Source: Haliotis rufescens
Taxonomy: Eukaryota
Length of the DNA stretch: 64,000 nt
Reading direction: 5' to 3'
Assembly: GCF_023055435.1 (NCBI RefSeq)
Contig: NW_025963802.1
Location: 7,874,001-7,938,000 of the forward strand
The notes below the pieces were generated by a model that did not search any database, was not told the DNA's origin, and saw only the letters and a program-made list of their open reading frames with translations. The translations under genes were made by a program, and so were the position numbers. Shown here piece by piece: positions 15,201 through 61,337 of this stretch. Every line of letters starts with the position of its first letter. Within the stretch, counting starts at the first letter, position 1.

Positions 15201-18200
15201 ATCATTGACTTGTAGGTGATACTGGGAATCCTGATCGGTCACTTTAATCTAACATTCAAAGAGAGCAGTAAGAAGGTAACAAATAAACGATAAAAATGTC
15301 ATATTTCTATTAACTTTACACAACAGCAAGGCTATTGAACTTCATCAAGTCAACACTTACCAGATTCTAATGCCACAGTAGCGGGTTGGTAAATCAGGCA
15401 GTCATTCCGCTGTGCTACAGTAGAAACATACATACGCCCCTTCTCAGAGCGTAGAAACATAGCGGCTGCTCCATCGGTTAAGGCAAACCTTTTATGCAGT
15501 TCTGTCTTATCATGGCGAGGGAATTTCGACTTGCATTGTTCAATTCCTTCTTTGAGTCCACGTGGTGAAAGGTCACATGAGTCATCCTGATATGGCATTA
15601 GCATGGTTTCGGTTCCGTGATGAGCTCCAGGAAGCCGCCCGACTCCGGGAGATGCTGCCGATGTATCCTGAGACGCAGAGGCGGTTGTGAGGTCGTGCTC
15701 TCCCTCCTCTCGTACAGGTTCTACTAGGTCCCTCTGGGCTACAACAGACAGCAGACAAACATTGCCTTTCTCTGTGTCTCAGTTAATGGGAGCACGAATG
15801 AGTCCAATACTGTGTTGTTTCTTTGTTGAAGTAGTTGTATATACCAACTACAAACATGATGTGTATGTGTATGATGTGTCGGTAACGGTGAGTGAATGTT
15901 CTGTAACGTCACAGTCAGCAACATTTCAGCTAGATCACGACTACCTGTTTGAAAAAAAAGCCTGGACACGGAAAACCAGATACTGAAAATGTGAGCGCCG
16001 ACCCACGCAATCGGGGCACATCCGTAAACGTCACAGGGCCTGAATATATTTCGTCGCCTCTCGCGACCACCAAGGGGATCCAGCGGATTTATTCTAACCT
16101 GGGTCCCCATGGGGTGTATGTTGGTTACAAGTTGAACGTTTTAGAAAAGGTGATAATTTTCGCTCTACTTCAGTATTTGAGTTACAAATGTTACAACCAT
16201 AGCTTCCATTAGGGTAACATTCAGTCACCAATAGTTTAAAGTAACACGGCTTTGTGCCATGCACTCTACTGTACTTGATATGAGTGAAGTATGGGGACGA
16301 TGGCAATGATGTGTAACAATGGTGATGCTGATGATGTGTTGCAATGGTGGTGCTGATGATGGCGATGATGTGTTGCAATGGTGGTGCTGATGATGGCGAT
16401 GATGTGTTGCAATGGTGGTGCTGATGATGGCGATGATATGTTGCAATGGTGGTGCTGATGATGGCAATGATGTGTTGCAATTGTGATGCTGGTGATATGT
16501 TGTAATGGGGGCGCTGATGATGGCGGTGATATGTTGTAATGGTGATGCTGATGATGGCGATGATGTGTTGCAATGGTGGTGCTGATGATGGCGATGATGT
16601 GTTGCAATGGTGGTGCTGATGATGGCGATGATATGTTGCAATGGTGGTGCTGATGATGGCAATGATGTGTTGCAATTGTGATGCTGGTGATATGTTGTAA
16701 TGGTGGCGCTGATGATGGCGGTGATATGTTGTAATGGTGATGCTGATGATGGCGATGATGTGTTGCAATGGTGGTGCTGATGATGGCAATGATGTGTTGC
16801 AATGGTGATGCTGATGATGGCGATGATGTGTTGCAATGGTGGTGCTGATGATGGCAATGATGTGTTGCAATTGTGATGCTGATGATGGCGATGATGTGTT
16901 GCAATGGTGGTGCTGATGATGGCGATGATGTGTTGCAATGGTGATGCTGATGATGGCAATGATGTGTTGCAATGGTGATGCTGATGATGGCGATGATGTG
17001 TTGCAATGGTGATGCTGATGATGGCGATGATGTGTTGCAATGGTAATGCTGATGATGGCTATGATGTCTTGTAATGGTGATGCTGATGATGTGTTGCCAT
17101 GGTGATGCTGATGATGGCGATGATGTGTTGCAATGGTGATGCTGATGATGGCAATGATGTGTTGCAATGGTAATGCTGATGATGGCAATGATGTGTTGCA
17201 ATGGTGATGCTGATGATGGCGATGATGTGTTGCAATAGTGATGCTGATGATGGCGATGATGTGTTGCAATAGTGGTGCTGATGATGGCGATGATGTGTTG
17301 CAATGTTGGTGCTGATGATGGCGATGATGTGTTGCAATGGTGGTGCTGATGATGGCTATGATGTGTTGCAATGATGGCGCTGATGATGGCTATGATGTCT
17401 TGTAATGGTGATGCTGATGATGTGTTGCCATGGTGATGCTGATGATGGCGATGATGTGTTGCAATGGTGATGCTGATGATGGCAATGATGTGTTGCAATG
17501 GTAATGCTGATGATGGCAATGATGTGTTGCAATGGTGATGCTGATGATGGCGATGATGTGTTGCAATGTTGATGCTGATGATGGCAATGATGTGTTGCAA
17601 TGGTAATGCTGATGATGGCAATGATGTGTTGCAATGGTGATGCTGATGATGGCGATGATGTGTTGCAATGATGGCGCTGATGATGGCTATGATGTCTTGT
17701 AATGGTGATGCTGATGATGTGTTGCCATGGTGATGCTGATGATGTGTTGCAATGGTGATGCTGATGATGGCGATGATGTGTTGCAATGGTGATGCAGGTG
17801 ATGTGTTGCAATGGTGATGCTGGTGATGTGTTGCAATGGTGGTGCTGATGATGGCGATGAAGTGTTGCAATGGTAATGCTGATGATGGCGATGAAGTGTT
17901 GCAATGGTGATGCTGATGATGTGTTGCAATGGTGGTGCTAATGATGGCGATGATGTGTTGCAATGGTGGTGCTGATAATGGCGATGATGTGTTGCAATGG
18001 TGATGCTAATGATGGCGATGATGTGTTGCAATGGTGGTGCTGATGATGTGTTGAAATGGTGATGCTGATGTTGGCGATGATGGGTTGCAATGGTGATGCT
18101 GATAATGGCGATGATGGGTTGCTATGGTGATGCTGATGATGGCGATGATGTGTTGCAATGTTGGTGCTAATGATGGCGATGATGTGTTGCGATGCTGATG

Positions 18201-20224
18201 CTGATGATGTGTTGCAATGGTGATGCTGGTGATATGTTGCAATGGTGATGCTGATGATGGCGATGATATGTTGCAATGGTGATGCTGGTGATGTGTTGCA
18301 ATGGTGATGCTGATGATGGCGATGATGTGTTGCAGTGGTGATGCAGGTGATGTGTTGCAATGGTGGCGCTGATGATGGCGATGATGTGTTGCAATGGTGA
18401 TGCTGATGATGGCGATGATGTGTTGCAATGGTAGTGCTAATGATGGCGATTATGAGTTGCGATGCTGATGCTGATGCTGAATCAACACTATTGTATGCAA
18501 AGAAAAGTAAATATGGAAATTTATTTGTTTAACTACAACTTGAATGTTTTTGGTTTCGCGCATTACTTAACAGTATGTCAGCTCAGTGTGTTTGAATTAC
18601 CGGATGTGACGTAAGTTGTTTGAATTTACCAATGAGGTCACCACCGCACATGGGTATGATGTTCGCATCCTAAGGATCGTAACTGAGGCAAATATCGGAC
18701 TCTAACACAAGACCTGTGGATCCTGGTACCTTGAGAACGGGTCGCGGCCAACCCCGGCCCTATAAATATTCTCAGCAATAAAAGTTCCTCTGACACGAAA
18801 TAAAACAAGAACCTGATCAAAGAAGACGCACACATGTGAAAGAATTCATATTTCCAAACAGACAATGGACCAGGAAAACAAGTGTAGACATTTAATGACA
18901 CATGACTAGCATGGCGTAATGACAAGAGAAAGATGCAATTGAACACGTCAGTTGCGTGTTGCGTGTTGCGTGTTGCGTGTTGCGTGTTGCGTGTGGGCCC
19001 CCTCTAGCTTGGATGCATACAATGCATCTCCTTCGCATTGAACGGATCAAACGTCTCACACAGTTTTGATGGGTGGCATCCCATACCTCCACCAGCCTGT
19101 CTCTCAGGTCTTGTACTGTAGTCGGAGCACGTGATAAATGTCGGAGACGGCGTTCCTTTTATCCCACATGTGTTAAATGGGAGAAAGATCTGGAGAGCTA
19201 GTAGGCCATGGGACCACATTCACGTTGTTCTGTCCAAGTGCTTGTTGAACAATCCGGGCTACATGGGGTCGGGCGTTGTAATGCTGAAAAAACATGCCAG
19301 GTCCATGTTGATTCAAAAACGGCACAACGATAGGCTGGGTGACCTCGTCACGGTAACGCTGCCCGTTCTAAATTCCATTGATCACTTGCAAACGAGTTCT
19401 CTGTCTCTCGGTGATTCCTCCACCATAACACTGACTCACCCGAAACGGGTCTTCCTCCACAACACAGTTCTGAGCGTAGCGTGAACAAAGCCGTCGGTAA
19501 ACTCGTATTCGGCCATGCTGTGGGAGAGGTGAAATCGGTGAACAGAACCTGTCTCCACTGAATTGTCGTCATACGCACTCGCTGTCTACACCACTGCAGA
19601 CGCAATTGGTGGTGCTTGTTGGTCAGAATTGGGCGTCCGGATGGCCTCCTCGTAACAATCCCGTAACGTCTAGGATGGCGACGCACAGTCTGTGCCGATA
19701 TTCGACAAAGGCCAGGGATGGTTCTTGCAGGGATTGTTGCAGGCTGGAACTGATTTCGCTGATGGGTGGTTCGAATCCAACGATCTTGACGGACGCTCGT
19801 AACCGGGGACCTGTCGCTCCTTGGTCGGTCTCTGACAGTGTTTTTGCCGCCAGCCACTGCTGCCATTTCTTCCTGTTGGTGTTTCTGTGCACGTTCAATC
19901 GCCTAGCAACTTCACGCTGCGACGTTCCTGACTGGAGCATACCAAAGGCTCTCAAGCGGTCATTTTCAAAGCTTTCAAATAATGATTGAAATTTGATGTT
20001 TTCCGTGTTGCAGTTGTCAAGACAAGCAGAAACAATGCATACTGAATCCCTACAACACGCGAGCTTTTATGCCCTGCATGAAAGACACTTTTTGCCATCC
20101 AGATATTTTAGAAGCTGAACCATTTAATGTCACAATCTGTATATCACTCTGCGTCCTCGAATATTTATGTATATATAAACAAATAAACAGTGATTTTCTC
20201 TGTCTTTCTTTTTTGTTGTTGTTG

Positions 20225-43520: not shown

Positions 43521-46500
43521 CTGAAAGAAAAGAACATGATGTTTAAAGGAGGACGGAGCTCGGTAAATTTTCAGTACCAGCCTGTTGGATTCAAGTAGGT
43601 CAAATACCACAGAGATGTGCCCATGTGTCATAATAGCACTAAGTACAGGGTCTATACTGTTACAAGGTGATTTCCAATTTCAAACGCAGAGGTTAACCCA
43701 TCAATCGGTTTGCACAGAACTAAACTGTGAAACTAGTAAATGACCAAAACAACATCGATGAATAATCAATAAAATATATTTTGAACACAGATTCAGGCTT
43801 ATAATCACAATAGGCAATACAATGGGCCAAATATGTGCTCTCGCGAACGTTTGGAATATTGTCACTGTAGGTTTTGCTGTAAGAGGCCTCTCCTTGCTTG
43901 AATCTAGACTCATGTTGGCAGCTTGTGTGGTGAGGTGAAATGGGGTTTAACGTAGCGTTCAAGATTATTGCACTTATATAGCGACATGCATACAGTGCTA
44001 GACTGCTGAGATACTATACTCCTCACAAAAAGTTAAGCAACAAATCTATTATGTGTCAGTCCATGTTCATATATTCCAATACCTAAAAACTGACTAAAGC
44101 AATACAAAGAAAGAGCACAAACACACATTATCCTCAAAGGGAACTGAAAAGCGTTTTTGCCTAACAGGTTGACAAATGATCAAAAACAGTATCATGAAAA
44201 CAGTCGTGCAAAATGTGCCGCACTGAAAGATGAAAATCTTTAAATTTGAGTTTGTCATTTTGAAACAATGATCCAATGTTCAGTAATGTGTATGTCCACC
44301 ATTGGCTTGAATGCATGCTTCTACACGTCTTGGCATTGACCAGATAAGCCTATCAAGTGTCTGTTGTGGAATGTTCTGCCATTCTCTCCTTAAGGCCTGT
44401 TCAAGTTGAGCCAGATTCTGAGGACGAACATGAAGACCATAAACACGCCTTCCAAGAATGTCCCATGCATGTTCAATGGGATTAAGATCCGGAGACCTTG
44501 CAGGCCAGTCCATATGCATGATGTTGTTGGTCGATGTGGACGAGCATTATCATCCATAAAGATGAACTTAGGACCTGCTTCTTGTGCCAGGGGAATGATC
44601 ACAGGTGTGACAATCTCGACCCTGTGCGGTACTCCAGTCATTGTACCACGTCTGATGACCACCAGATCAGTTCTGTGTCCAACCCTGATGCCAGCCCAGA
44701 TCATCAAACTTCCACCTCCGTACTGGTCGTGTTCAGCAATTGTACAGTTGGCGTATCATTCATTACGGTTTCTCCACACACGTGCCCTACCATCGTTGAA
44801 GTCAAGGCAGAATCTTGACTCGTCTGTGAAGAGAACGTTACGACAACGATTGACCCTCCAGTTACAGCGTTGATTGGCCCAAGCAAGTCTCTGTTGTCGA
44901 TGGTGTGCAGGCAGTGGGATACGTCGTACTGGTCGTCTTGACCTCATATCCTGAGCGTGAAGTCTGTTTCTTACTGTCTGTGTTGAGACTCTGTTTCCTG
45001 CAACTCTCTGAAGGTCATTCTGGAGAGATCTGGCCGTAGTAAACCTGTTTCCCCGGGCTAGGGTGGCTAAATACTGGTCCTCACGAGGAGTTGTCACCCT
45101 TGGACAACCTGTGCGTGGTCTCTCTGTCATCAGTCCAGTTTGATGGTATCGAGTTATCGCTCTTGAGCAACAGGGGGAAAGTAGGGTTGATCTTAACAAA
45201 ACTCATAATCCACGCCAGATGATTCCACAGTGCTGTCTGATTAAGGAGATGATAAGAAACAAGTAAGGTCGAAAAAAGATAATCAAATCGCTCTTTTATA
45301 GAGACAGCCAGCCAGCCTCTTAGAAACCGTCCTATCCGGAAACGTCTCGAATGATCAAGCCTTCCATGTTCATGCATACAATCAGGGTCAGATAACTCCG
45401 CTATCCATATAAAAGTGTCATGTATTCTAGTAACTCCGGTACAAAACCATCCTGAAAGATCTACTCGCTGTGGACTGCGGTTCAAATCCGCCCATGACAG
45501 CAATTATTATTATTATTATTATTATTATGGGGAGTCGGACAACATGGTACTTTGGATGCAAGCGTGACATTTCGAAAGCGAGGTCTGCATATTTGATCTT
45601 GTCAATCACATTACTGTCAAAAGGGACAGAAAATTCAATGATATAAATGATTTCATTGGATATATCAAAAAGGACAAGATCAGGTTTGATGGTCTGGATA
45701 TGTCTGAGGCTGTATACGGGCCTATTCGAAAGGATTTTGTATTTATCATTTTCCATGACAGCCTCTACATATTTCGGTTCGTACCATTGATGGACCTCTG
45801 TGTCAAAACCATAACCATGTCGAAAACGGTAATAACATGGTCAAGTCACTCCATCATGTCGCCACAGATACTGTGTCTGTGCCAAAGCTGGGCATCCACT
45901 CACAATGTGTTGGACAGTCTCATTAAATTCATAATTACATAATCTACATTTCAAATTCACATTTTGATGCAAAAGTGCACAAAACAATTGTGTCATGAAA
46001 AGCCCCAACGTTAATCAAACCACGTCCTCCCGTAATGACTGGTAAATATATTATAAGTGATTGAGGGAAGAGCGAGGGTGGTGGGATCTATTGTCTGACA
46101 TGATTCTTCGTGTGAGGGTGTCAATACCCTGAATTTCTTGTTATGTCTAATCAACAACACCAAAAGAATATGAAAGGACGGGTACAGCATAAGTATTTGT
46201 GGCTTTTACCTTATTGCGAGCGTTCAGATTTTCCAGATTTTCTTAAGTCCAGATTTTGTTTAAGTCTACATTTGTACTCTGCCCGAAGTGTTTTCCTTGA
46301 TATGGGCATTTTAGAGTTTGTCCCTAATCTGCATCCCTAAGTACGTATAGGCCTGACCTTCCATGAGATGGTCAATAACTCCTCCTCCAAGGAAACTGAC
46401 TGATTTTCGCTCTTCTACCTTGGCACGTTTCAGATGAAGAATGTTGCATTTGTCGAGTCCAAAGGACATGTTGATATCATTAGAAAAGGACTCATCTGTT

Positions 46501-49500
46501 TTTTGAGTGTGGATCCTCCATTGGCAATAAGTTCAAGGTCATCGATGTAAATGAGGTGAGTAAGGGGTGTTGGAGATCTGTGCTGAGGAGGTCCAAGATG
46601 ATAACCTTCCTCTTTGCTAAGCAAAAAGCTCAAAGGATTTAATGACAAACAGAAAAGCAAAAGACTGAAAGAAACGCCCTGAAATATTCCTCTTCTAATA
46701 GAAATGGTTTACAAAATCACCACCTGCCACTGTGAATACATCTAAAGTTGACTTGACCAGTAATTCATTAAAGATTTGAGTAAAACAAATAGCCACTCAG
46801 GGAGGTCAATACATTCCAGTGACTTCAAAATTCATTCGTGAGGTACAGAATCATAAGCTTTTCTGTAGTCTATCCAACACATTGAGAGGTTACGGTGGTA
46901 AGTTTTAGCCTCTTTCAGGATCATTTTCTGAACCAGCAATTGATCCTTACAACCCCAACATCCCTTTCTGGATCCTTTCTGCTCCATGTAGATAATGTCA
47001 TTCGAAGCGCAGTACGATGACGAGATCTGTAAGACACCCTGTAAATAGTTTGTACTGTGTTCAAACAAGTAATTGGGCGGAAGCTTTTAGCGTCAGTCAG
47101 ATCACCTTTCTTTGGGAGAAGTATTGTTCACCCTTTGCAGAACAAAGGCGGAACATCCCCTGCATCCACAAGAGAATTAACACAGTGAAGTAATGGCGTT
47201 TGGGCACAAGGGAACTGTTTCCAATACCGGTTTCGAATACCATCAGGCCCTGGCGCCGTATTAGATTTGGACTTTTTAATGACATTTTTTAGGCAATCAG
47301 GTGTAATGAAACACAACAATGGTGAACTTATTTTTGTAATCCTCTACCCATGGTTCATCGAGGTTACAGTTGCCGGGTACAGACCACAACTGTTTCCAAA
47401 ACATTTCACTGGAATCCATGGTGGGTCTTTTCACATCACTCTCATTCCCTGCATTTAATTGCCTGTAAAATTGTTTTTCATGTGATTTAAACAATTTATT
47501 TTGTTTTATGAAATTATTTTTCTTATCCCACTTTCTTTTTTCTTTCTGTCCAAACCTTTAACTTTGCCTTTAGAGAATCAAGAATTTGATTGAGTATTTT
47601 AACCTTTGTTGTCTTGTGTTTTTGTTGTTGTTGTTTTCCAAATTGATTTCTGGCGTTTTGACATAGACTGTCCTGAAGAACGCAGTTTTAAACAAAGTTA
47701 TATCCAAGACACATCTTTCCTTGTTTCATCCAATATAATTTGAAACCGGTTTTTCTTTTGATTTTGTTGTTGTATATTTCCCTTTTGTGGTTCATTTTCT
47801 TTGGACACTTATGTGGTTCCTCCAGTGTTCAGCAGCAGCATACACGCAACAGTTAATGTCATGCAAAGAGCAGTCCGCATTGAGAGTAACAGAAATAAAT
47901 AGAGAATACTACACTCATTCTCGTTAGATACCATTTTTACATGGTAAAAATGGTATCTAACGAGAATGAGTGTGGTATTTTATTTATTACCCACGTTAAA
48001 TATATATTTCAGTGTAAATACATAACAACTTTCGTTTGTTGACAGACCAAACTGAAACCGGTTGCAAAATCTGGTTGCGTATGAATATTGATATATGCCC
48101 AAATATGGGCATTGTTGACATTTCTATGCATATGCATTAACAACATGCGCCTGCAGTTGTGCTTGCAAAGAAAACAGCACCGATGCTCAAGATCCTTTTG
48201 GAAGAAATTCTTCAACTTATGGTAATTCAAGCGCCATGTTATTAGTGCGTAGGACAACTATAAGAAATTTGAAAAGTCACATAAGCGCCGCGCTTTGAAT
48301 ATCGGACCAACAGTCGGTCACTCGCACTGCCAGTGTCCCGTCTGTGCAATCAAAATGGTTCGGTTTCCTTGATCTATCAGCTGAATTCATCATGTTCGTA
48401 CCATTTTGGAAGAGGGAAATCAGAGTGTTCGCCAAAGACATTCATGTAAACTGTACCACCCTATACTGAAGACGTGAAAATCAACAAACTTGTCATGTCA
48501 GTGACAGCTTCGAGCGATCGAAGGGCAAGGTCACCACCGGAATAAGAAAAGACAACCGTGGTCTACTCACAGCTTTTTACGCTAGAGATAGGGAGTGTTA
48601 TTGTTCACATTTGGGATGTTTGGGGCCACAAAATCAGAAGTCAGGCACACTTCCACGGATTTTTCGAAAGATTTGTATCTGGTCGTGCAGTCGTGTACGT
48701 TCATTCATGAACAACACCTCCCGAAACAGCGCCACAAAATACGCTTCGAAAGTGTTACGTGCTGTGTATGCTGTACACATGTCTGGATAGCCATAGCCAA
48801 CTCAGGTTAAAGCATCAACGTTTATTATAACTTGCATTGCAGACATACACCAAGGGAAGCAACTCTTGTCACAAGAGTGCATACCACGTAACATCTCCCT
48901 TCCTTTGAGGAAAACAAATAAAGTAATTAAACCTTTAACTACAGGTACATTAACCCAAGAAATGAGTGACATTACCGAGTCGGTCCATATACTGGGATAC
49001 AGTATGCAGTTCACTATAACATTCCGTTAAAGCACTTTCCCATAATTCCTGAATTAAAGTTCGCTGTCAACTTGCAATGACAAAATTATAAGTTTTAACT
49101 AAACAACATCAGAAACACATTATTATTCCAGTCTTTGGAAAACTGTTAAAGAACACATCCAAGAATTACAAATCAAGCCGTTTAACTGGCTTAACTACTC
49201 TCCCAGACTTTGTCTTGAACATGTCAGATTTTGGAGATGAGGTATTCTTTGGAACATCTCTTGTTGGAATGACAGAATCAGTCTGAGTATTAGAGAGGTT
49301 AGCACTAGACTGAACACATTGCTTATCCTGGATAAGTTCATCATCTCTAGATCTTCTTGGCGACTGGCAGTTTGAGAATGTTGGAATCTCAAGATTAACA
49401 TCATCCTCAACTCTAGACTTTCTGGCAAGACGAAGTTGTTGTCTATTCCGTTTGAAACAGTGACCATTATCAGATCTCACAGAGTAGGTTCTTGGCTTGA

Positions 49501-52500
49501 TCTCATCTGTCACAGTAGCTTCATTCCATTCCTTCCTGCCGGTTTGAATGGGTTGCATTCTGACAGTATCACCAACCTGTAAGCGTTTGAGAGGTCTCTC
49601 AACTACAAGCATCCTTTTGTCTTCAAGTTGTTGCTTGTCATCCGGACCAGAATCATGTTGAATAGTCTTTAACGTACAAGGAACCTGAGTACGTGTTCGG
49701 CGACCAAATAGTCTTTGGGCTGGACTTGTTTGTACGCCTTCGGTCGGTGTATTTCTCACATTCAACAATCCCAGGTAAGGATCCTCTTTAGCAGCTAGAC
49801 ATTTCTTCATCATCCTTTTAGCTACTTTAACGGCAGCTTCGGCAGCACCATTAGCTTTACTGTTACCAGGGCTGGAAGTTTCATGAGAGAAACCCCAAGA
49901 CTGACTGAACTTCTTGAACTTCTCACTGGTATACTGAGGTCCTCCGTCACTGATGACGACTTTAGGTATACCATGACGAGCAAAGTGGTGCTTCAACTTG
50001 GTAACCACAACATCAGAAGTGGTTTCAGGCAGAAAGTCAATTTCAAAGAAATTGCTGTAGTAGTCAGTTGTCACAAGGTAATTCCTACCTTCAATGGTGA
50101 AAATATCAGTTCCCACCTTTTCCCAGGGATGATCAGGAATCTCATGCATAATCAGAGGTTCTGGTGATTGCTTATCACTGAAACGAGCACAAATATCACA
50201 TGACTCGATATACTGTCTTATGTCACTTGACATCAAGGGCCAGAACACAAGTGTCTTTGCACGGCGTAGACAAGAGTTTATCCCCATGTGACCAACATGA
50301 AGTTTTCTCTTGATCTCATCTCTCAATGCAAGTGGGATGACAACTCTAGGTCCAAGAAGAATTATCCCATCTTGAATGGTGAGTTCGTCTCTGTAACTGA
50401 AGTAAGGAGTAAGCTCAGAGGACAGATTCTCCTTATGTGTTGGCCATCCTTCCATTATAGTTGATTTCAACTTGGTGAGGGTTTCATCAGATGCAGTTGC
50501 AACTCTAATGTCATTCATGAGCTTGTCCTTGATCGGGAGATGATAGACATTATTCACATACACAGTTTCAGAGGAAGGTTTGTCAGGCAATGGCGCTCTG
50601 GAAAGTGTATCAGCAATAGGAATAGCTGTTCCAGGTAGATACTGAAGATCGAACACATATCGCTGGGTCCTCAGTAGCAATGACTGCAGTCTATTGGGAG
50701 CTCTAGACAAGGGCTTCTTGACGATAGACACTAGTGGCTTGTGATCAGTTATCACAGTTACACTTCTACCATATGTGTAATGGTGGAATTTCTCAAGACC
50801 AAAGGTCACGGCGAGCATTTCCTTTTCTATCTGAGCAAATCTTTGCTCAGTGTCAGTTAGCGAGCGACTGGCATAAGCGACAGGCTTTCCCTCCTGCATT
50901 AGTACTGAGCCAATGCCATGTTCACACGCATCATTCTCAACTGTCAGCTCTTTCTCTGGATCATAATATGACAATACAGGTGCCTTGGTAACCATGTCCT
51001 TAACCTTTTGGAAGGATTCCTGTTGAGAACTGGACCATGTCCAGGCAACATCCTTTCTTACAAGGTTACGCAGAGGAGCTAGCACATCAGTTAAGTTTGG
51101 CAAGAACTTGGACAAGTAGTTCACAAGACCAAGGTAACGTCGAAGTTCTTCAAGATTTGTTGGTGGAACCATGTTTTGAATTGCTCGGACCTTCTCGGGG
51201 TCAGACTTCAAACCATCTTTGTTTATCAAATGTCCCATGAAGGTGATTTCACTCAATCGCAGTTCAAGTTTTGATGGGTTCAGCTTGATATGGCTCTCGC
51301 GACATCTTGCTAGAAATGCTTCAAGATGAGCATCATGTTCTTCTAGGTTCCGACCATGAATCAGCACATCGTCAGCAATACAGACAACACCTGGTAGTCC
51401 ATCAAGGGCTTGAATCAACTTCTTTTGGAAGATTTCTGACGACACAGAAAGACCAAATGGCAACCTGAGAAATCGATAACGACCAAAACAAGTTTGAAAG
51501 GTCGTAAGAAGACTTGACTCCTCATCGAGTTGGACATGCCAGTATCCAGATGACAAGTCAGCTTTGGAGAAAACTCTAGACTTCCCTAGCTCATGTAGGG
51601 TATCTTCAAGCACAGGCAGAGTGTAATGCTCTCTACAAAGGGCTTTGTTTAGTTCTTGCGGATCCAAACAAATTCGAAGTTCACCTGATTTCTTTTGCGT
51701 AATTGCGATTTGGTTTACCCAGGGGGTTGGCTCACTGACAGGCGCAATCACACCTAACTTCTCCAGTCTGTCTAACTCAGTGTTCAACTTTGAGCGCAGT
51801 GCAACAGGAACACGACGGTTTGGCATCACAACTGGTCTCACCGCACTATCAACTGACAGATGAACAACACCACTAAAAGTACCAAGTTTACCGTCCAGCA
51901 CATCACTGAACTTTTCAGTAACTTCAATATTGGCAACACGTTCAATATTCTTCTCATGAATTGTGACTAAGTTCATGAGTGTAACAGTTTTGACACCTAG
52001 GAGAGGTACAAAGTTCTCTTGCACAACAACAAATTCAACAGAATACTTTTTCTTGTTAGCAGGATTCTGAACAAGAATGTTTAGGCAACCAAGAGGAGTG
52101 ACGTCAGTCTCATTCCACATCTTCAACTTTTTAGTTGTAGGTTTCAGACTCTTCAACTTGTCCTGGACAATAGAAGACGGAATGATATTAACAGCAGCAC
52201 CAGGATCAATAGTGAAGACGACATCTCTTCCCTCCACGGTCATTCTACATTTAGCAGGCTTGTCCGTGTTTGAATCTTCATGCACAGAATTTATCCAATC
52301 TTCATCTGGAAGCTCAACATTGTTGACTTTGCTGTATTGCTTCTTACTGGGACACTTTGGTGCAAAATGATTCAGCTGGTGACACTTCGTGCACTTTTTT
52401 CCCCATGCAGGACAACTTTTACGAGCCATGATATGAGAATAACCACAGAATTTACAGTCTCTTTCACGCTGAGATTGAGGTCTCTGACTTCTCGATGGAG

Positions 52501-55500
52501 AATTCATCTTTTGACTTGAACGAAGAGGCTTCTTTTGCCTTGATCTCAAAGAGTCTATTGCAACTCTATTGATAGGTTCAGGTCTGATCAACTTTGACTG
52601 AACTGACGCATTTTCAGTGGCTTTACAGATGTCGATACATCTTTCTAGAGTGAGGTCCCTTTCTTTGAGCAGTGCTTGCTGAGTGTCGGGATCTCTTACT
52701 CCAAGGATGAGTCTATCTCTTATTATTGAAGAGATACAATTCTGACAATAGTTGCAGGTTTTCACAAGAGAACGGATTGATCCTAAGAAATTTTCAAATG
52801 TCTCTCCTTCCTTCTGTTTTCTGAGATTGAAGACGTATCTCTCATATGTCTCATTAACTTCACCAATAGTAAATGCTTCGAATTTGTCTAGAATTTCTTT
52901 GACAGTTCTCTCAGCTTCTGGTGTTTGAAAATGGAATCCATTGAAAACTTTTAAGGCTTCATCACCAAGTGTGTTTAGGAGCAAAGCTACTTGATATTCC
53001 CTTCCATATCCTGGCAGGTTCACAAGTATAGAATAATTGGTCCATTTCTGTTTGAATGATTTCCAATTTTCAGCAATGTTGGATTCAATAACAAGGGGTG
53101 ATGGAGGTTTTATACCACTAACAGGCCGTTGAGCTTGAGGAGGATTGTCGGCCATATTTGAAGACTTGAAGCAAGGCTAGACTATCTTCACAGACAATAC
53201 ACACTTGTAGCTAGTTGACATCGACAAATGCAGACAGGAATCTCTCGAGTGTGCAGAATGTCGCTTATCAGGTCAAATTAAGCTAACAGATTCAAGTGTT
53301 CATTCATTTCAGCGAGTGACATCACTGCTGAGACATTTGAATGATAGCAGACGAACGCACGTGGTCTGAAACACCTCGGTTTCCATTATAACATTTCAGA
53401 CATAAAACTGACAGAAATAGGTCGTGGTATCATAGAGGAGTGAGAAAGTCACCTGCTGCCACCATGTTACGTGCTGTGTATGATGTACACATGTCTGGAT
53501 AGCCATAGCCAACTCAGGTTAAAGCATCAACGTTTATTATAACTTGCATTGCAGACATACACCAAGGGAAGCAACTCTTGTCACAAGAGTGCATACCACG
53601 TAACAGAAAGGGACACTGATGGCACAACCGGATCATCCCAAGTAAGTCTACATATCTCTCCGGATAGTTAAACAGACTTCATTTCACCAGGCTTATCCTT
53701 TTACGTTAAATCAAATTGAAAGTTGCGAAAGTGGTCGGGTGCGTCACACTCATGGGGGACCCTCGCTCTATTGATCGATTATATCCCAACGTTACCTGAA
53801 TTCGGCGTTCTCCTGTTTTCGGCGATCATGTTTCTCGCGTTATTGTCCGAGAGCACGTGCTGTGTCAGCAGGTCACTTCGACCCTCTCGGAAAAAAATCG
53901 GCTCCATATGGAAATCAGAAAGGTATTCTTACTATAGTTACAAAAACGTTGTTGAAATATACTCTCGAAACTTATTACCAATCCTACCCTATTTAAAAGT
54001 GTTGGAAATTGTAGTACTGAACTTCTAAAAATTCGCCTTTCGGCATCGTCTGCTAAGTTAACCATGTTTGTCAACAATATATCACGTGACTGAAGTCGTC
54101 AGATGCCGAGCGGTTAAAAAAATATGGAAACGTTTTCGGGACATCTCTTATAGTATTTTACCATTCGTCCCAATGGTTCTAAGATAGTTCTTTATGTTCT
54201 TTCAGACCAGTACGACCGTTCGTGGTCATTATAGATCCAATTACAGCATTGATGACCTGGATAATGCCTATAAACTGGTTACCGAAGAAAATGTATCTGC
54301 ACAGAGGGCTGCAGCTAGGTGGGGTGTTCCAGTTTCAACACTTAAAGACCGTCTTCTCGGAAATGTCAGCCTCGACACAGTCAAGTCCGATGCCGTTATT
54401 TACAGCAACAAAGGAGTCATTCTTGGCCAGTCACATTCGGGTTATGGGGGAGATTGGCTATGGTTACACTCGTCAGGAGTGAATCAACCTTGCGAGTGAC
54501 TATGCTGTCCACTTGGGATATCGGGATCGTTCTCATCCATTGAGTTTACGGTGGTTGTACAGCTTCATTGATAGATGGCCAGAACTTAAAGTCCAGAAAC
54601 CACGCAAACTTGAGGCTGCAAGGGCGAGATCGGCGACCAAGGAGAACATTGCGAGGTATTTTGGAGAGCTGTCACAGCTCATAAAGAAACACAGCTTGGA
54701 CAATTCTCCTCATGCTATCTTCAACATCGACGAGAAAGGCCTCTCTACCGATGTTAAACCCCCCAAGATTGTTGCCGGTGTTAATTGCAAGGCACAGACT
54801 GTGACATCGGGAAAGTCTAAAACAGTCACGATGATTGCAGCTGTCAGTGCAGTTGGCGGGAATGTTCCTCCTTCTTTTGTATTTCCTGGTCAACGGATGA
54901 GAGAAGAACTGCTGTCTGAAGCAACACCTGGAGCCTCTGGCACTGTGTCTGAGACAGGATGGTCGAATACGGACGTATTCAGCACCTACATGAAGGATCA
55001 CTTGGCGAAATACCTGCCAGCTCGTGACGCAGATTCACCCGTTCTTATATTATATGACGGCCACAAGAGTCACGTGTCACTTGGTTTAATTGAATGGGCG
55101 AGGCAAAATCACATCATATTGTTTGTTCTTCCACCTCATACCAGTCACCTTTTACAACCGCTTGACATCGGGTGTTACGGTCCTTTTCAGACCACCTGAA
55201 TGAGAGCCTGTCATACATTTCTTAGAGAAAATTCCGGGAGAGCCATCAGTCAACACGACATATGCGGGATAGTGTTTTATTCCACTTTGACGCCTATTAA
55301 CATTGTATCTTCCTTCAGAAAATCTGGAATCCACCCGTTCAACTCCGATGTTGTTGATGACTTGCTTGTCATGCCTGCCCGGTCTTTTACCAGGCCCCCG
55401 CCGTCTGATTCGGAAGGAAATGCGGTTGTTGCCAATACTGATTGTGCAGCACGAGATTTTCTGGAATATCAGGGTGGCGAAGTCTTGAAGAATGTGAAAA

Positions 55501-58500
55501 CGTTTAAACCAAGAAATACTCTGAGTAAAATCGTCGGTGGGAAGGCAATAACTGACCAGACAATACTTGACAAAATTACAGCGCATCGGGATAAACAGAA
55601 TTAAAGTCGGCAAACAGAATCCGCGTAAGAGGAAACGGGACAGTCAACGTGATCCATGCACTGACCAGCCCACAACATCAGGCGTGGATATATCTATGGG
55701 AAAAGGCAATTCTTCCAATAACAACAAAGCCAAGGGGAAGATATCTAGTCGCGCGGGTACTGCTGACAAAGCTACGCGCACACCTGAAGTCCCACCTAAT
55801 GACAGTTTCACAGACAGTGAAACAGATGATGACGATGTCTGTTGTGTTTGCGGGAAATTCACTCCTGATGCCTTACGGTACACTGACACAATCACATTTG
55901 TGAAGTGGGCAGAGTGCAGTAAATGTGGACATTGGGTGCATCTAGTATTTTGCACGAAGTTACGATTTGTCCACACTCATACACAATTTCTTTGTGCCCA
56001 CTGTGAGCCAACGGTTGAAGAGTAAAATTCATAAATGTCTTCAAATGTTCCAGTTGGAGTGACTCATTTAATATTTCTTAATTGATGTTGGAACTACGTC
56101 GAGTTCCATTGTATTTTCACCAAAAACATTCACGTGTTGTGTGTGAAACATAATTTTGGATTTCATCAACGGTGTACCATACATTCTTCGTGTGAAACGT
56201 CATCGCCGAAAACAGGTGACGTAGGACGCATCTCCCAAATATGGGCCACTGCAGTAATTTGAAGAGTGTCGTCAGTAAAATGTGAGTGAATATCCTTTGA
56301 CAGATGATTGTTGCCATTACCAGAAAATGAATTGATTTTATTTGAACGTGTATAATTTTACCGCGCACTTTTCGTTCATCGCCGAAAACAGGTGAAACCG
56401 GGATATAATGTCTGTGGAAGCTCAATGCATAACTTATATAGGATGCAAACAGAATTTGATGCGTGTAACTATTTTGTTTGGTTTAATAAAGTGTTTGTAA
56501 ATATCTCTCGTTCTCATTATTAATTTCTTCAGTTCTGCCTTGTAGTTGCAAAATGAATGACGTCTCGCGATTTTTTATGAATGAAAAAAGTAGTCCCGGT
56601 GTGACAGAGGTCACGGTTATCCAATCAAAACGAATAAAACAAGGTCAACCTTGTACGACACACGTGTGACGTACGGATTTAGTATCTTACCACCTGTATC
56701 TTCACCACGTGGGTAATAATGTCATTTAACTTATGAAGTTGATTCTGTGGAAATGATTGGTTAATTTGTTTTATTGGCTTCCGTTTCTCAATCGGTAAAT
56801 CACAGATTTGATTATAAAATGTTATTTTAATTATAATTAATTTTAATATTATTATCCTTTCAATAGTTGCAGCAACTGACAATCACTTCAAATATATTTA
56901 CACTAACACTACTTACACATAACAATACTTAGATCTGAAATTAGTACCCGACATTAGAGCACGCCAGACAAAGTGTGTGAAAAGACAATTATGATTATCT
57001 TGTCCACTTCTTGTTGATACCAACCACCACCACCACCACTTTGTAAAAACACACAAACTAATACCTGTGAAATATACAAAGTCTTCAGCATCCCCAACTA
57101 CCCTGCCTCGTTTTCAGATAAGCAAAACACCCCGTCCACTAAAGTTAAGAATTCTGAATATATATTAGGCGTTTATTTCTGACATATGACGCCCAAAGGG
57201 TAAAAATCAACAACAACAATAAAAATAATAATAATCACATTACATCTCATCCTACCGGGTACCCATTCACTGCTGACATACTTCCAGTCTCTTGCCTGAG
57301 GAGACACCACACGTGCTTCACGATCTATACCCCATGCATTAACATGTTGGAATGGTTCAAGGCATTCAAGGCATGCGAGATATTCCATAGTGGTTTTTTA
57401 TGCACCCACATGAAGGGTTTCTGTGTGTCATGTCCAGAATACAGTCATCATGTTTAATGGACGCCAGGCGGCTCTTTATCACAGATAGGCCTCCAACATG
57501 AGGGGATACAAATAGGTTACAGTTGTCGCTCACCATGTTTGCCGCAGTAGTTCCTGTTGAAGCCGTTTCTGTTGATGAAGGGAATTGCTTTACAATCAGT
57601 TCCGTGCCAGAGTTGCATCTCCGGCTCTCTGAACTGCACACTCTTGGCGGTGTACTGCTTGTACAAGGTCTTGTTCTGAATGCGCTCGATCTGGAAGCAG
57701 TGAGTGAGCCCGTGTTAGAATAAGTTCCCAGAAACCTATGCTGGTCGAAATAGACGATTTAATGGTTCCAGGGGTTATGCTCGGTGACTTGGTTGATTGC
57801 TTGTCATCGTACCTTGACGGCGTGGGTCGCTGCTCACTGGACTCACTCCTAAAGTTGATAACTCTATGTACAACTGACACAAATACTGCCACAAGTCGAC
57901 TTAGATGTCGCACAGGGTGGATTTACGCCAACGCATGTTTTATTCAAATAACAACCAACACAAATAGCGCCAAGGCTGTGTTGCTCACAAGCGACCTTCC
58001 ATATGAGCTAATGTAGTGTGTATTGAAATATTTAGCCACACACGCGGGAAAGTGTTAACTGGCTGCGCAATGTTTTCTCAATATAATATTCTTTACAATT
58101 GAAAAAAAGATTGATATTGTAACAAAACTCCTCCAAAAATATCACTGCAAACCGGTTTCTGAAAATAGAATGCTTAATCAGTTTCTAGAATTGAACAATA
58201 TATTTCAATTTAATTTTGCATTTAAACTTTTTCCATTTGCGTGCCATAAACAAATCTAATCCACATTAGGATCTGAAACACCTCTGCACTCGGGGCCTAG
58301 AGGTTTCTGAGAATATGATTTATTGGTGTTTTTCTTAAAGTTTGTATTATTTTATGGCTATGTTGATCAAAACATGTGGTACATTGAATCATTGGCATTG
58401 CAGCAAGATTATATATTTTTTTTATTATATCGGAAAACATAAATGCCTATCTGTTTATCAATTCACCTTTACTACTTTCATCCTTGATACTGAAAACTTG

Positions 58501-61337
58501 TTATCCACAACCCTGTACTCTTGGTCATCCTGGTTAAGAAGGACCACCTTTATGTTCTCACCGGGATCCATGGGTTCCCAGGACAGCGGTGGGTGGAAGT
58601 CTCTCGCTGAAACTACAAGACCAGGGTGCCCTTGTACAAAACAACCTTAGCACTACGGCAGTCGTAAGTCTATGTTAAAGTATGGGAGTTACGATCACCT
58701 TAGCGCTATGATCACTTTGTACAACGGCACCCGGGACTTTGGGGAATGCTCGGATTTAATGAGTAGACAAATTTAAGACATTTTAGCTTAATTAATTCAT
58801 TGCTTTCCGAAATTTGAGTAAAACTAGATTGATAAAGAAAAGTAAGTGACAATGGTGAGATAAGGGTAAAAAGGGGTAACGTGCGTTTCTATGACAACCA
58901 CATATACATATTGCATACCAAATTCCTCTTTGATTAAAGCAGAGATGACATAAGGGACTTTTTCAGCATAGCAGCCATGATGTCCATGTTAAGAAACGGC
59001 CTGGATTCTTTTTAGCTTTTTAGGTAGTAATAAAGGACAAAAGGGCAGCGCGCTAATTTTCAAAGCTATAAACCAAGTGGTTTGTGACATCTCTAGATTT
59101 ATGAGGGTCTATGAACTCAGAGGCCATTGTCATATCAGAAATCAAAGTAAGCATTGCGCATGACAAACACTTCATGGATATTAGTCACTGGTAACTTGAC
59201 ATTTTCAATATGGCTGCCGTGGTCGTCAATTTTAAAACAGCATTACCTCGCCCATTCTTCCAATGAAACACATTACCGGATTCTGGCATGGACGCATAGC
59301 ATCTATACAGTCTTGTTTGGTGGTTAGCTGGCGCCATTATATTACAAACCGAAAGGATATCCTATTTGACCTACTTTCAGTAAGGTTCCTTCTGACGACA
59401 GGGACTGACGTATTTTCCTTGTCTCCTTCCTTGTATTCCACCATGTCGTTAAAGTTGATGACGTAGTTGACGCCGTCATTAGTGGTCAATTTACATTCAG
59501 GCTCTACGGCGTTGCTCCGGAATGCCCGCTCTATTTCCTCATTGAGACCAGACTCGTATTTCTTCAGCACTTGTTCCCCGCTCTCTTTCTCGTCAACAAA
59601 GTACCATTGTATGGCCCTAGCCTCGATTTGGGAAGCTCGTATGTCTACACATATCTCATACACGTGTTTCATCATGTTGTAAACATCATCAGGAAACCCC
59701 TGATTATGAAATCAATTAATAAATAAATACATTTTAGCGATTGTTTCTTTTGTTTGTTTGTTTGTTTGTTTGTTGTTTAACGCAGCTATATGACGGCGGT
59801 CTGTAAATAATCGAGTCTGGACCAGACAATCCAGTATCTGGAATACGATGACATGCATCAACCAAGTCAGCGAGCCTGACAACCCGATCCCGTCAGTCAC
59901 TTCTTACAACAAGAATAGTGGCTTTTTGTGGCAAGCATGGGTTGCTTAAGACCTACTGTACTCCAAATTTGAACGGAAATGAGTGAGTGAGTGAGTGGGT
60001 AGATGTATAGGTAGGTAGGTAGGTAGGTAGGTAGGCTGGCAGACATGCCTTATTTATCAACTCACGATTGAATAATTTCTTGTGCAAACTGATGTATTTG
60101 ACATTTACAACTATCATTTCCCAACTGTCTTGTCTCTTCTGTCAATGGCCGTCCTATCTTACTTCGTATAGTTTTTCTTTTGCCCGTGTGTGCATATATC
60201 AAAAGTTTCTCTTAGGCAGTTATCACATTTAAAGGATATCTGACTTGATGTCGTTATTAATTCTTGGAAGTGTAAAAGCCTCAAAGAAATGATTCGACAT
60301 GAAGGTTTACCATAACATTGACAACTCCACCGTTGGTGTCCACGGAGATGCCTACGCTGTGTATCTTTGCATGGTCATATAGATATTTCAGCTGAAACGA
60401 TCAGAGCGAGAGAGTTGGTTGAACGCTGCTTTGAATAGTATCTTAGTAACGGTCTTAATATTGGAGGAAGTCCCCTAAGTGACGCTTAAACACGGATATG
60501 GGGACACCAGCAAGAATCATACGCATAATAATTGGCTAATCGTGGATATTAATCCACAAACAACGGATCCTGACGTGATTAACGGTCGCAAGTTACTCGC
60601 AACTCCTACAGCGAGTTGCCGCGCATTAGACGGTAGGAAACCTGTGCCCTCTAAACCCAGCTGCTGAAGTGGTGCCTTTTGCTGTTCAGGATAAATAGAT
60701 TGGCCTGATTCGGTGATGGGAACGTTGGGTTTAACATCAACACTCGCCATTATTCATCAACACCTGTAAGCACGGTGATACCAAAGTGGTGGTACACGCC
60801 CAATGATACCTCCCGATGAAGGTATTTTGGCGAAGATTGCAATATAACGTGATATATCTGTAAAGAAACCTAATATGGAAGAATAGTGTGTGTGTGAGAT
60901 TTTCACTTTGTAGTCTTTGACTGACAACCTTGGTAAGCACCTGTCCTCATCCAGAAAGTGGTATTATCATTGTGGCTATTATAAATTCCCAAGGCAACAG
61001 GCGTTCAAAATTATTGCATTACACAGCGACGCGTGTCCCGTTTACTATAATAGTAAATACCTTGTCAACTGTCAAGTTCACCAAACATTCTTCGGCAATA
61101 GGTTCTTGCTTTATTTTAGGCAGTGACTTCAGCTCTGCAATGGCTTGGTCAATGCGCTGTGAACAGTCGGAGTGGATTGAAACCTCATATCCCTCGGTTT
61201 CATACACCTTGAAGCCTCGCCGTTGCAAAGGTTTTACGTCGTCGTCCATTGTTGCACTCGCTGAAAACATCAAATTAATGACACTTAGCATGTCCACCGA
61301 ACCATTAAATATATGTGTGTGAAACCTAAGAAACACA

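Follow-up and report, generated by a model that had tools for sequence, protein, structure and literature searches.

A gene-less Crypton in Haliotis rufescens with a proposed folded recombination site and probable movement as a single DNA strand

The transposons closest to the element described here are the animal Cryptons, for whose movement the literature consulted offers only a hypothesis. The available text of Kojima and Jurka 2011 (PMC3212892) presents animal Cryptons as lacking terminal repeats or other terminal signals and cites a duplex-circle hypothesis for their movement, and some CryptonV families insert into microsatellites, according to the available part of PMC8869645. Among other tyrosine recombinase (YR) systems, a replicative-resolution model exists for integrons (as summarised in the accessible portion of PMC9345347), and YRs act with a 3′-phosphotyrosine polarity (PMC3442271). 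Neither a hairpin nor a single-strand model for Cryptons was found in the literature searched, which did not extend to Repbase Reports and Goodwin 2003.

The window, which is the whole 64,000-nt stretch analysed (positions 7,874,001 to 7,938,000, forward strand, of H. rufescens contig NW_025963802.1), contains at 47899-56719 a 1.34-kb non-autonomous Crypton with two nested insertions. Lacking a gene of its own, it is one copy of an abundant animal transposon, whose recombinase-coding relatives have the same ends. Its features are as follows (positions in the window).

47894-47898, + strand: host target, left half-site AATAA, outside the element; present in empty paralogues; left-flank consensus R-T-A-H
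47899-47905, + strand: left terminus, formed by the 7-nt spacer ATAGAGA of the element itself, kept at 86 of 89 scorable left ends
47899-47995, + strand: terminal hairpin and inner arm, 97 nt; CGAG blocks and GCGAAAGC loop lost relative to the 168-nt form
47970-47995, + strand: inner arm, complementary to the joined ends, as judged from sequence, the natural-junction fold and covariation in other families
47975-47978, + strand: part of the inner arm pairing with the left arm
47979-47983, + strand: 5-nt spacer of the inner arm
47984-47995, + strand: part of the inner arm pairing with the right end
47996-48752, + strand: internal segment A, with about 62% similarity to the autonomous element
48395-48589, - strand: decayed remnant of the 3′ end of the recombinase gene (tblastn E = 2e-8, 36% identity, a stop and gaps)
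48753-53605, - strand: nested Ty3/Gypsy-type LTR retrotransposon, outside the Crypton proper and missing in other copies
53611-53783, + strand: internal segment B, with about 34 nt absent near its end relative to other copies
53784-56403, + strand: nested pogo-like DNA transposon, outside the Crypton proper (HTH_psq, DDE_1, broken frame)
56404-56719, + strand: segment C, sharing 87% identity with the autonomous element over the final 240 bp
56708-56719, + strand: right terminus CGTGGGTAATAA, an element-derived arm (TAATAA in 71 of 100 unbiased rows)
56720-56729, + strand: host target, 6-bp spacer TGTCAT and right half-site TTAA

The nested Gypsy-type element has 141-bp LTRs differing at one position, a GAAAG duplication and a 1336-aa frame. 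The pogo-like element has imperfect TIRs and is flanked on both sides by TA; its left end was found at five places, following TA in four of them. The counterpart of segment C in the autonomous element lies upstream of the recombinase gene. The window copy, which lacks the hairpin centre and has taken up nested elements totalling 7.5 kb, is probably dead.

The preliminary description of this DNA had proposed a non-autonomous element of about 1.3 kb, moved by a Crypton-type recombinase encoded elsewhere, and had looked to further copies with both ends and to longer ones encoding a DUF3504 tyrosine recombinase. All of these are present in the genome, a search of which revealed hundreds of copies, other copies being uninterrupted (A+B+C) and about 1.3-1.5 kb long. 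The proposed boundaries and junction mirror are also real. The host paralogues carry the actual empty site: it is present in 13 of the 14 paralogues of the host repeat, reading AATAA/TG(T/C)C, and in the 14th minus one T. The window copy and eight others have empty paralogues at gap 0, with neither duplication nor loss, while two copies matched empty paralogues only at gaps 4 and -6. The boundaries had originally been argued from restoration of a host reading frame upon deletion of the element. The empty site stood but the open frame did not, the ORF being closed around the insertion site in the three paralogues that were translated; frame restoration is therefore weak support, and the proof lies in the paralogues. 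In a profile search the host repeat, suggested earlier to be R4/Dong-like, gave only a weak RVT_1 match.

The autonomous partners L068/L093 and L094 carry both Crypton ends and one ORF, which in the 2.4-kb L094 is an open frame for a DUF3504 tyrosine recombinase of 515 aa. The partner protein matches DUF3504 (E 3.8e-24) and Phage_integrase (E 2.5e-8), and GCR1_C was absent from a Pfam scan at E 1 in which three families matched. The catalytic residues R262, H391, R394, H417 and Y426 are all present, R394 and Y426 being invariant in 97 rows. Domesticated DUF3504 genes, unlike the partner, have not retained the catalytic R-H-R-Y. The best structural match of the recombinase model (pLDDT 84) is Cre (E 1.4e-10), which is closer than integron integrase (E 1.6e-6, rank 32); the N-terminal 55-aa beta-barrel gave SH3/KOW/Tudor-like matches, none reaching E 0.001. 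Homologues from molluscs and one hemichordate are named KIAA1958-like or ZMYM2-like. The window element and the partner are 90% identical in the hairpin arm and 87% in the last 240 bp; since the internal part is only 62% alike, an older relative may instead be the exact mobiliser. Contigs of three public runs were about 150x deeper over the ends of L094 than over its gene and included a near-empty-site joint with unclear letters, and nothing in a public small-RNA run matched L094.

In 62 copies compared, TA occupies positions -3,-2 in 47 and +8,+9 in 37, against a background mean of 5, and the best axis of target symmetry yields a 6-bp spacer (r 0.62; next 0.44). Sequence comparison identifies the targets as dyads of diverse AT-rich sequence around a 6-bp spacer, and two tail-to-tail pairs are separated by exactly 6 bp. 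No base is shared between the left flank and the right end in 42/62 copies, and at least four are shared in only 9/62; duplication of any kind is lacking in 49/62, the remainder having 2-4 nt. The alignments show that insertion is precise, falls at the 5′ edge of the 6-bp spacer and produces no duplication. The earlier suggestion of short direct repeats as the recombination substrate is not supported. Nor is AATAA a terminal repeat, its right copy being element-derived and its left copy target; the comparison of flanks in the 62 copies and the gap-0 empty paralogues rule it out as a direct repeat or TSD. The exact right-to-left join occurs seven times in the genome, in head-to-tail stacks. These joins are no proof of a circle, since an inserted copy offers a new target at its right junction and re-insertion explains them; the stacked copies differ, and the tail-to-tail pairs show the right junction used as a target.

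The arms of the window hairpin (47905-47940 and 47944-47979; 36 nt, 97% complementary; fold z = -14 in 200 shuffles) are as nearly perfect as had been claimed, and the right end is indeed the inverse of the left subterminal sequence, with TTATTACCCACG at 47984-47995 and its inverse copy at 56708-56719. The family hairpin is 168 nt long with a GCGAAAGC loop, and the window copy represents a 97-nt deleted form without the centre. The proposal that the joined ends are nearly the reverse complement of an internal stretch survives, but the mirror is not exact: the join exceeds the inner arm by 2 nt, a shortfall conserved across families. Reading by eye gave spacers of 7 nt in the joined ends and 5 nt in the inner arm in eight families, and covariation such that the inner arm matches its own family's right end in seven families with 37-57% protein identity. 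The + strand of the natural junction folds better (-83 vs -76 kcal/mol) and is favoured by 1-3 kcal/mol in 8/9 other hairpins, with L072 reversed; for most hairpins the energy gap between strands is small. On this strand CGAG lies opposite CGAG and the GCGAAAGC loop occurs in three families, both being known stable motifs of single-stranded DNA according to the available parts of PMC10085684 and PMC13037366. Loops are inverted in 3/28 scorable hairpins, and deletions are scattered over the tree of copies, a deletion class of eight rows corresponding to six changes. Both kinds of rearrangement are scattered single events confined to the hairpin centre, a pattern that fits palindrome decay, and the tree does not support deleted hairpins as mobile sub-lineages (43/68 paired copies are 1.2-1.65 kb).

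The element's spacer is kept at 86 of 89 scorable left ends (binomial p 4e-22 vs 0.5) and follows at most 1 of 97 right ends, some rows in both counts being segmental duplicates and hence not independent. The right end reads TAATAA in 71 of 100 unbiased rows, 26 being variants and three truncated. These alignments show that the two spacers are inherited one-sidedly. The reciprocal product is expected in half of the cases from a two-strand exchange; its near-absence from the footprint suggests that, as in CTXphi, a folded site exchanges only one strand. L157, a candidate reciprocal product, is actually an insertion into the hairpin of another element. In 12/97 copies the right end finishes with a target-like base, and a crossover shifted by 1 nt fits two of the four readable cases and not the other two. 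In two families the +1 base agrees with the first base of the element (A 78/109, T 15/29; Fisher p 0.001), and a third shows no such agreement (A 8, T 2, n=14); given this disagreement it was rejected as a reporter of the pairing strand.

With a probability of about 0.62, we propose that the non-autonomous Crypton moves in the form of one DNA strand, in which the joined ends and the inner arm would fold into a recombination site. The wider reading, in which animal Cryptons are single-strand transposons and a Cre-like enzyme inserts the folded strand into loose 6-bp-spacer dyads by one exchange, is hardly less probable. The footprint, together with the 3′-phosphotyrosine polarity of YRs (PMC3442271), implies that the transferred strand would be the + strand. 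This strand of the window, antisense to the gene, would be exposed single-stranded and fold, the left junction then resembling a site with a mismatched 7/5-nt centre and the right junction being an ordinary duplex 6-bp site. The recombinase would exchange that one strand to produce a single-strand circle, the other strand retaining a copy. Within the circle the join would pair with the inner arm, and a single strand exchange with a duplex target would follow, in which the mismatched centre would block the second exchange and the junction would be resolved by replication. Several observations weigh against single-strand movement: the small strand energy gap and the reversed L072, the variable last base without a single rule and the disagreement of families over the +1 base, the enzyme fold nearer to Cre than to integron integrase, and the two copies with non-zero paralogue gaps (4, -6).

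The one-sided footprint would also be explained if one strand were transferred without a free folded circle, either by SE-like strand-biased copy-out or by an inner-arm bridge aligning the chromosomal ends, like an ICR; the long hairpin might then be a second-strand origin, with a duplex circle integrating by one exchange. There are precedents, since SEs circularise one strand using YRs (available part of PMC9345347), VGJphi is duplex DNA that integrates by one exchange, and mini-hairpins are known at single-strand replication origins. However, a duplex circle would offer a 7-bp spacer to a 6-bp target, and the fixed 2-nt shortfall of the inner arm at the exchange point is needless for an alignment guide or an origin, and we regard this route as unlikely. 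Still more doubtful is the textbook Crypton route, comprising excision of a double-stranded circle and two strand exchanges, with the palindrome acting as a cruciform or accessory binding array and directed repair fixing the spacer outcome. The duplex circle is the published hypothesis (available text of PMC3212892) and has support in Starships (accessible part of bioRxiv 10.64898/2026.09.21.753150); the Cre-like fold and the full dyad of the target also agree with it. Against it, both spacer arrangements are predicted, in contrast to the 86/89 left and at most 1/97 right ends observed, neither the junction (7) nor the inner site (5) would, as duplex, fit the 6-bp target spacing, and the route does not account for the way the inner arm tracks the right end in seven families. 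The single-strand reading is likewise preferred over inverted sites serving inversion or hairpin-end resolution in a Flp- or protelomerase-like manner, with a hairpin-ended linear or rolling intermediate. The inverted loops in 3/28 hairpins and the two inverted sites that a circle would carry 160 bp apart speak for this very improbable process, but the rearrangements look like palindrome decay, being scattered and restricted to the hairpin centre, and in none of the copies examined is the whole hairpin flipped at the sites. Helentrons carry a hairpin and a sub-terminal inverted repeat, a resemblance behind the Helentron alternative of the preliminary description, and the window copy does contain a DDE_1 gene, but the element with the same ends encodes a YR only, the target is a dyad with a 6-bp spacer, there is no duplication, and the DDE gene sits between ends of its own and does not occur in other copies, leaving a Helentron or DDE-mobilised element largely refuted and scarcely credible.

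Base-precise definitions are now available for the cis signals and the target dyad, for the site of the cut and for the strand predicted to be transferred; with open enzyme genes from several families, they make the mechanism testable with oligonucleotides. If the single-strand model is true, folded single-strand recombination would extend beyond bacteria, to a eukaryotic system that parallels CTXphi and integron recombination but has evolved around an enzyme encoded by the element itself. The ZMYM/QRICH1/KCTD1 domains would then descend from a hairpin-reading enzyme, and a small enzyme inserting DNA without duplication or double-strand break might find technical use.

In integron attC cassettes, a YR acts on a folded strand, the strand is chosen by imperfections of the hairpin, and units are stacked. 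By analogy, the Crypton may share the folded-strand YR site, the imperfect hairpin and the stacking of units; it differs in having no attI platform, a hairpin at one end only and an enzyme model nearer Cre than IntI. In CTXphi attP(+)/XerCD (PMC3442271), comparable here in the way it works only, two inverted sites fold within one strand around a mismatched centre, one strand is exchanged with a duplex target, replication completes the process and tandem arrays arise. However, CTXphi uses host recombinases, a unique dif site and a rolling-circle single strand (PMC3442271), whereas the Crypton has its own YR, a loose AT-rich dyad as target and a fold requiring joined ends. According to the available part of PMC9345347, the SE elements of Vibrio are also YR-driven, with a one-strand outcome and a 6-bp central sequence in fixed placement, but they are bacterial, have four core genes and are described there without a hairpin site. 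DIRS elements (available text of PMC13465315) share a YR and an internal sequence complementary to both termini. The membership suggested by that likeness to the ICR is not borne out, the resemblance being geometric only: the 2.4-kb partner has one ORF and neither reverse transcriptase nor RNase H, and the complement is here an arm of the terminal hairpin. Within the Cryptons, the 4-6-bp terminal direct repeats of CryptonF and CryptonS are lacking (42/62 copies share no base), and the targets are diverse dyads rather than the microsatellites of some CryptonV families. CryptonA, in the available text of PMC3212892, has a single YR ORF matching DUF3504 with the catalytic residues kept, a length of about 2.4 kb, no GCR1_C, TIR or TSD, and far commoner gene-less derivatives. 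The present family likewise has a YR-only ORF with R-H-R-Y kept, no GCR1_C, no TIR, TSD or terminal direct repeat, and shared termini, its assignment to CryptonA resting on these features. That text mentions neither a hairpin nor a junction complement nor a target dyad for CryptonA, whereas the family described here has all three.

The preliminary description had placed a mobile element at 47899-56719, with a hairpin at its left end and an inverse 12-mer at its right end (56708-56719), and all of these lie where it put them. The reconstructed empty site is also real: in 13 of 14 host-repeat paralogues, fetched out of 40 matches, AATAA (47894-47898 in the window) is directly joined to the right flank, while the fourteenth lacks one T at this site. 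The host is a decayed non-LTR retrotransposon with at least 40 genomic matches, two of them no more than 60 kb from the insertion site. The element contains two unrelated insertions, both with ends and a duplication of their own; its length without them is 1343 bp, and its three pieces are contiguous in other genomic copies.

Features in and around the element and elsewhere in the window
45427-47898 and 56720-about 56990, minus strand: decayed non-LTR retrotransposon, host of the insertion
48753-53605, minus strand: nested Gypsy-type LTR element; one difference in 141 bases between the LTRs, single 1336-aa frame, GAAAG duplication
53784-56403, plus strand: nested pogo-like DDE_1 element; broken frame, asymmetric sub-terminal repeats
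44280-45202, minus strand: Tc1-like transposase remnant (HTH_Tnp_Tc3_2, E 1.5e-19)
58617-58739: another long hairpin, imperfect (54-nt arms, complementarity 74%)
16323-18476: tandem array, 2.1 kb, period 34 with sub-periods

The Gypsy-type element is young. The pogo-like element has a Cys/His-rich tail, PHD-like by eye and lacking a Pfam match, and its left end has five genomic matches.

A recombinase encoded elsewhere had been proposed to move the element, and a longer element with the same ends and a tyrosine recombinase of the DUF3504 family was indeed found, both ends being present at one of the 30 DUF3504 loci fetched (150 scored). The first partner copy (2451 bp) has one frame interrupted by a stop, and the second, L094 (2359 bp), has an open frame of 515 aa. 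The partner protein matches DUF3504 and Phage_integrase and retains R262, H391, R394, H417 and Y426; its structure model (pLDDT 84) is best matched by Cre, with QRICH1 at rank 4 and an integron integrase at rank 32. An SH3/KOW/Tudor-like barrel at the recombinase N-terminus (L094:1498-1671) is kept in seven aligned proteins. The partner gene is oriented as the window minus strand, with the hairpin downstream of it. The window element contains a decayed fragment of this gene, and the two elements are 87-90% alike at their ends and 62% in the interior. The element is almost certainly a Crypton. At least eight Crypton families coexist in the genome (loci L093-L119), and in several of them the gene is open (515-545 aa). 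About ten long open frames (515-925 aa) that match DUF3504 weakly are clustered at G000:C323:3195554-3516007 and may represent an expanded family of domesticated genes.

Searching with the DNA of either element end brought up more than 1200 first-look candidates, of which 40 per end were scored; exact patterns matched 259-282 right ends in the genome and the left arm 320 times. The complete family hairpin is 168 nt long, and its centre is lost or inverted in many copies, including that in the window. Such deleted hairpins could define mobile sub-lineages, but on a tree of 43 copies, with the hairpin excluded from the alignment, the losses are scattered and so fit decay after insertion: one deletion class (8 rows) needs six changes, and as few were obtained in 34 of 500 shuffles. 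In a 17-bp satellite (L283, G000:C1:84961100-84961900), the repeated unit is a fragment of the Crypton's hairpin arm. At L021, L105, L157 and L278, Cryptons inserted in hairpins and ends of other Crypton families form mixed stacks, a triple one at L278.

AATAA does stand at both ends, as first described; the right copy belongs to the element and the left copy to the target, so the two are not a repeat of common origin. No duplication above chance length was found in 62 paired, non-stacked copies. Empty paralogues with no gained or lost bases were obtained for eight further copies with different left flanks, and two others matched a paralogue only with gaps. The joined flanks of the 62 copies form a dyad, R-T-A-H, six free bases, D-T-A-Y, with TA at -3,-2 in 47 and at +8,+9 in 37 (background 5), and its symmetry is strongest with a spacer of 6. 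Two tail-to-tail copy pairs lie exactly 6 bp apart, which marks the cut position on the other strand. The target layout is that of a tyrosine-recombinase site, spacers of 6-8 bp being given for such sites in PMC3212892.

Exchange of two strands between unlike spacers would, from the chemistry of these recombinases, leave heteroduplexes that replication turns into two equally frequent products; only one product type is seen in unbiased read-outs of the ends. The element spacer (47899-47905 in the window) is kept at 86 of 89 left ends (at most two mismatches; three unclear), counted by hand in the first 100 of 320 left-arm rows minus eight satellite rows, two inner arms and one rearrangement, and an element-like spacer follows at most one of 97 right ends (first 100 of 259 rows, three truncated ends set aside), both sets including some segmental duplicates. 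At 12 of the 97 right ends the final base reads C, T or G, which is more variation than neighbouring positions show (p 0.0007). Very probably, only one strand is exchanged.

A hairpin of 115-170 nt is borne at the 3' end of the gene in eight Crypton families, namely the partner's own and those at 37-57% protein identity to it. The right end was located in seven of the eight, and there the inner arm (47970-47995 in the window) matches it with family-specific letters. Read by eye, the spacer between half-sites is 7 nt at the left end and 5 nt at the inner arm in all eight; the 6-bp spacing of the target is absent from both duplex sites. When folded, the strand offers a duplex site whose centre is mismatched. 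The stem mismatch blocks place CGAG opposite CGAG on the plus strand, and CGAG blocks and GCGAAAGC are described as folding into stable structures of single-stranded DNA that contain sheared G-A pairs (PMC10085684; PMC13037366). The loop is in forward orientation in 25 of 28 gene-less copies. Tyrosine-recombinase polarity makes the plus strand the exchanged one; the natural junction fold is -83 kcal/mol for this strand versus -76 kcal/mol for the minus strand, and the plus strand folds better in eight of nine other hairpins, by small margins.

We favour, at a probability of roughly 0.6, a folded-single-strand route from excision to replicative resolution. The plus strand would become exposed and fold, and the folded left junction would recombine with the duplex right junction in one exchange, which would release a single-strand circle. 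The circle would then undergo one exchange with a new dyad target, and replication would resolve the integration junction. The seven places in the genome where the ends are joined exactly are no evidence of circles, since different copies meet there at a regenerated target.

The literature searched yielded no account of a hairpin in Cryptons, of a junction complement or of a single-strand model for them; the palindrome may be described in sources outside this scope, namely Repbase entries, Goodwin 2003 and bioRxiv supplements. The rows shown of the PMC3212892 supplements give no terminal repeats for animal Cryptons. The cis architecture and the footprint point to a mechanism for which no counterpart was found in print, in an element whose superfamily is known and which is CryptonA by every feature testable here.
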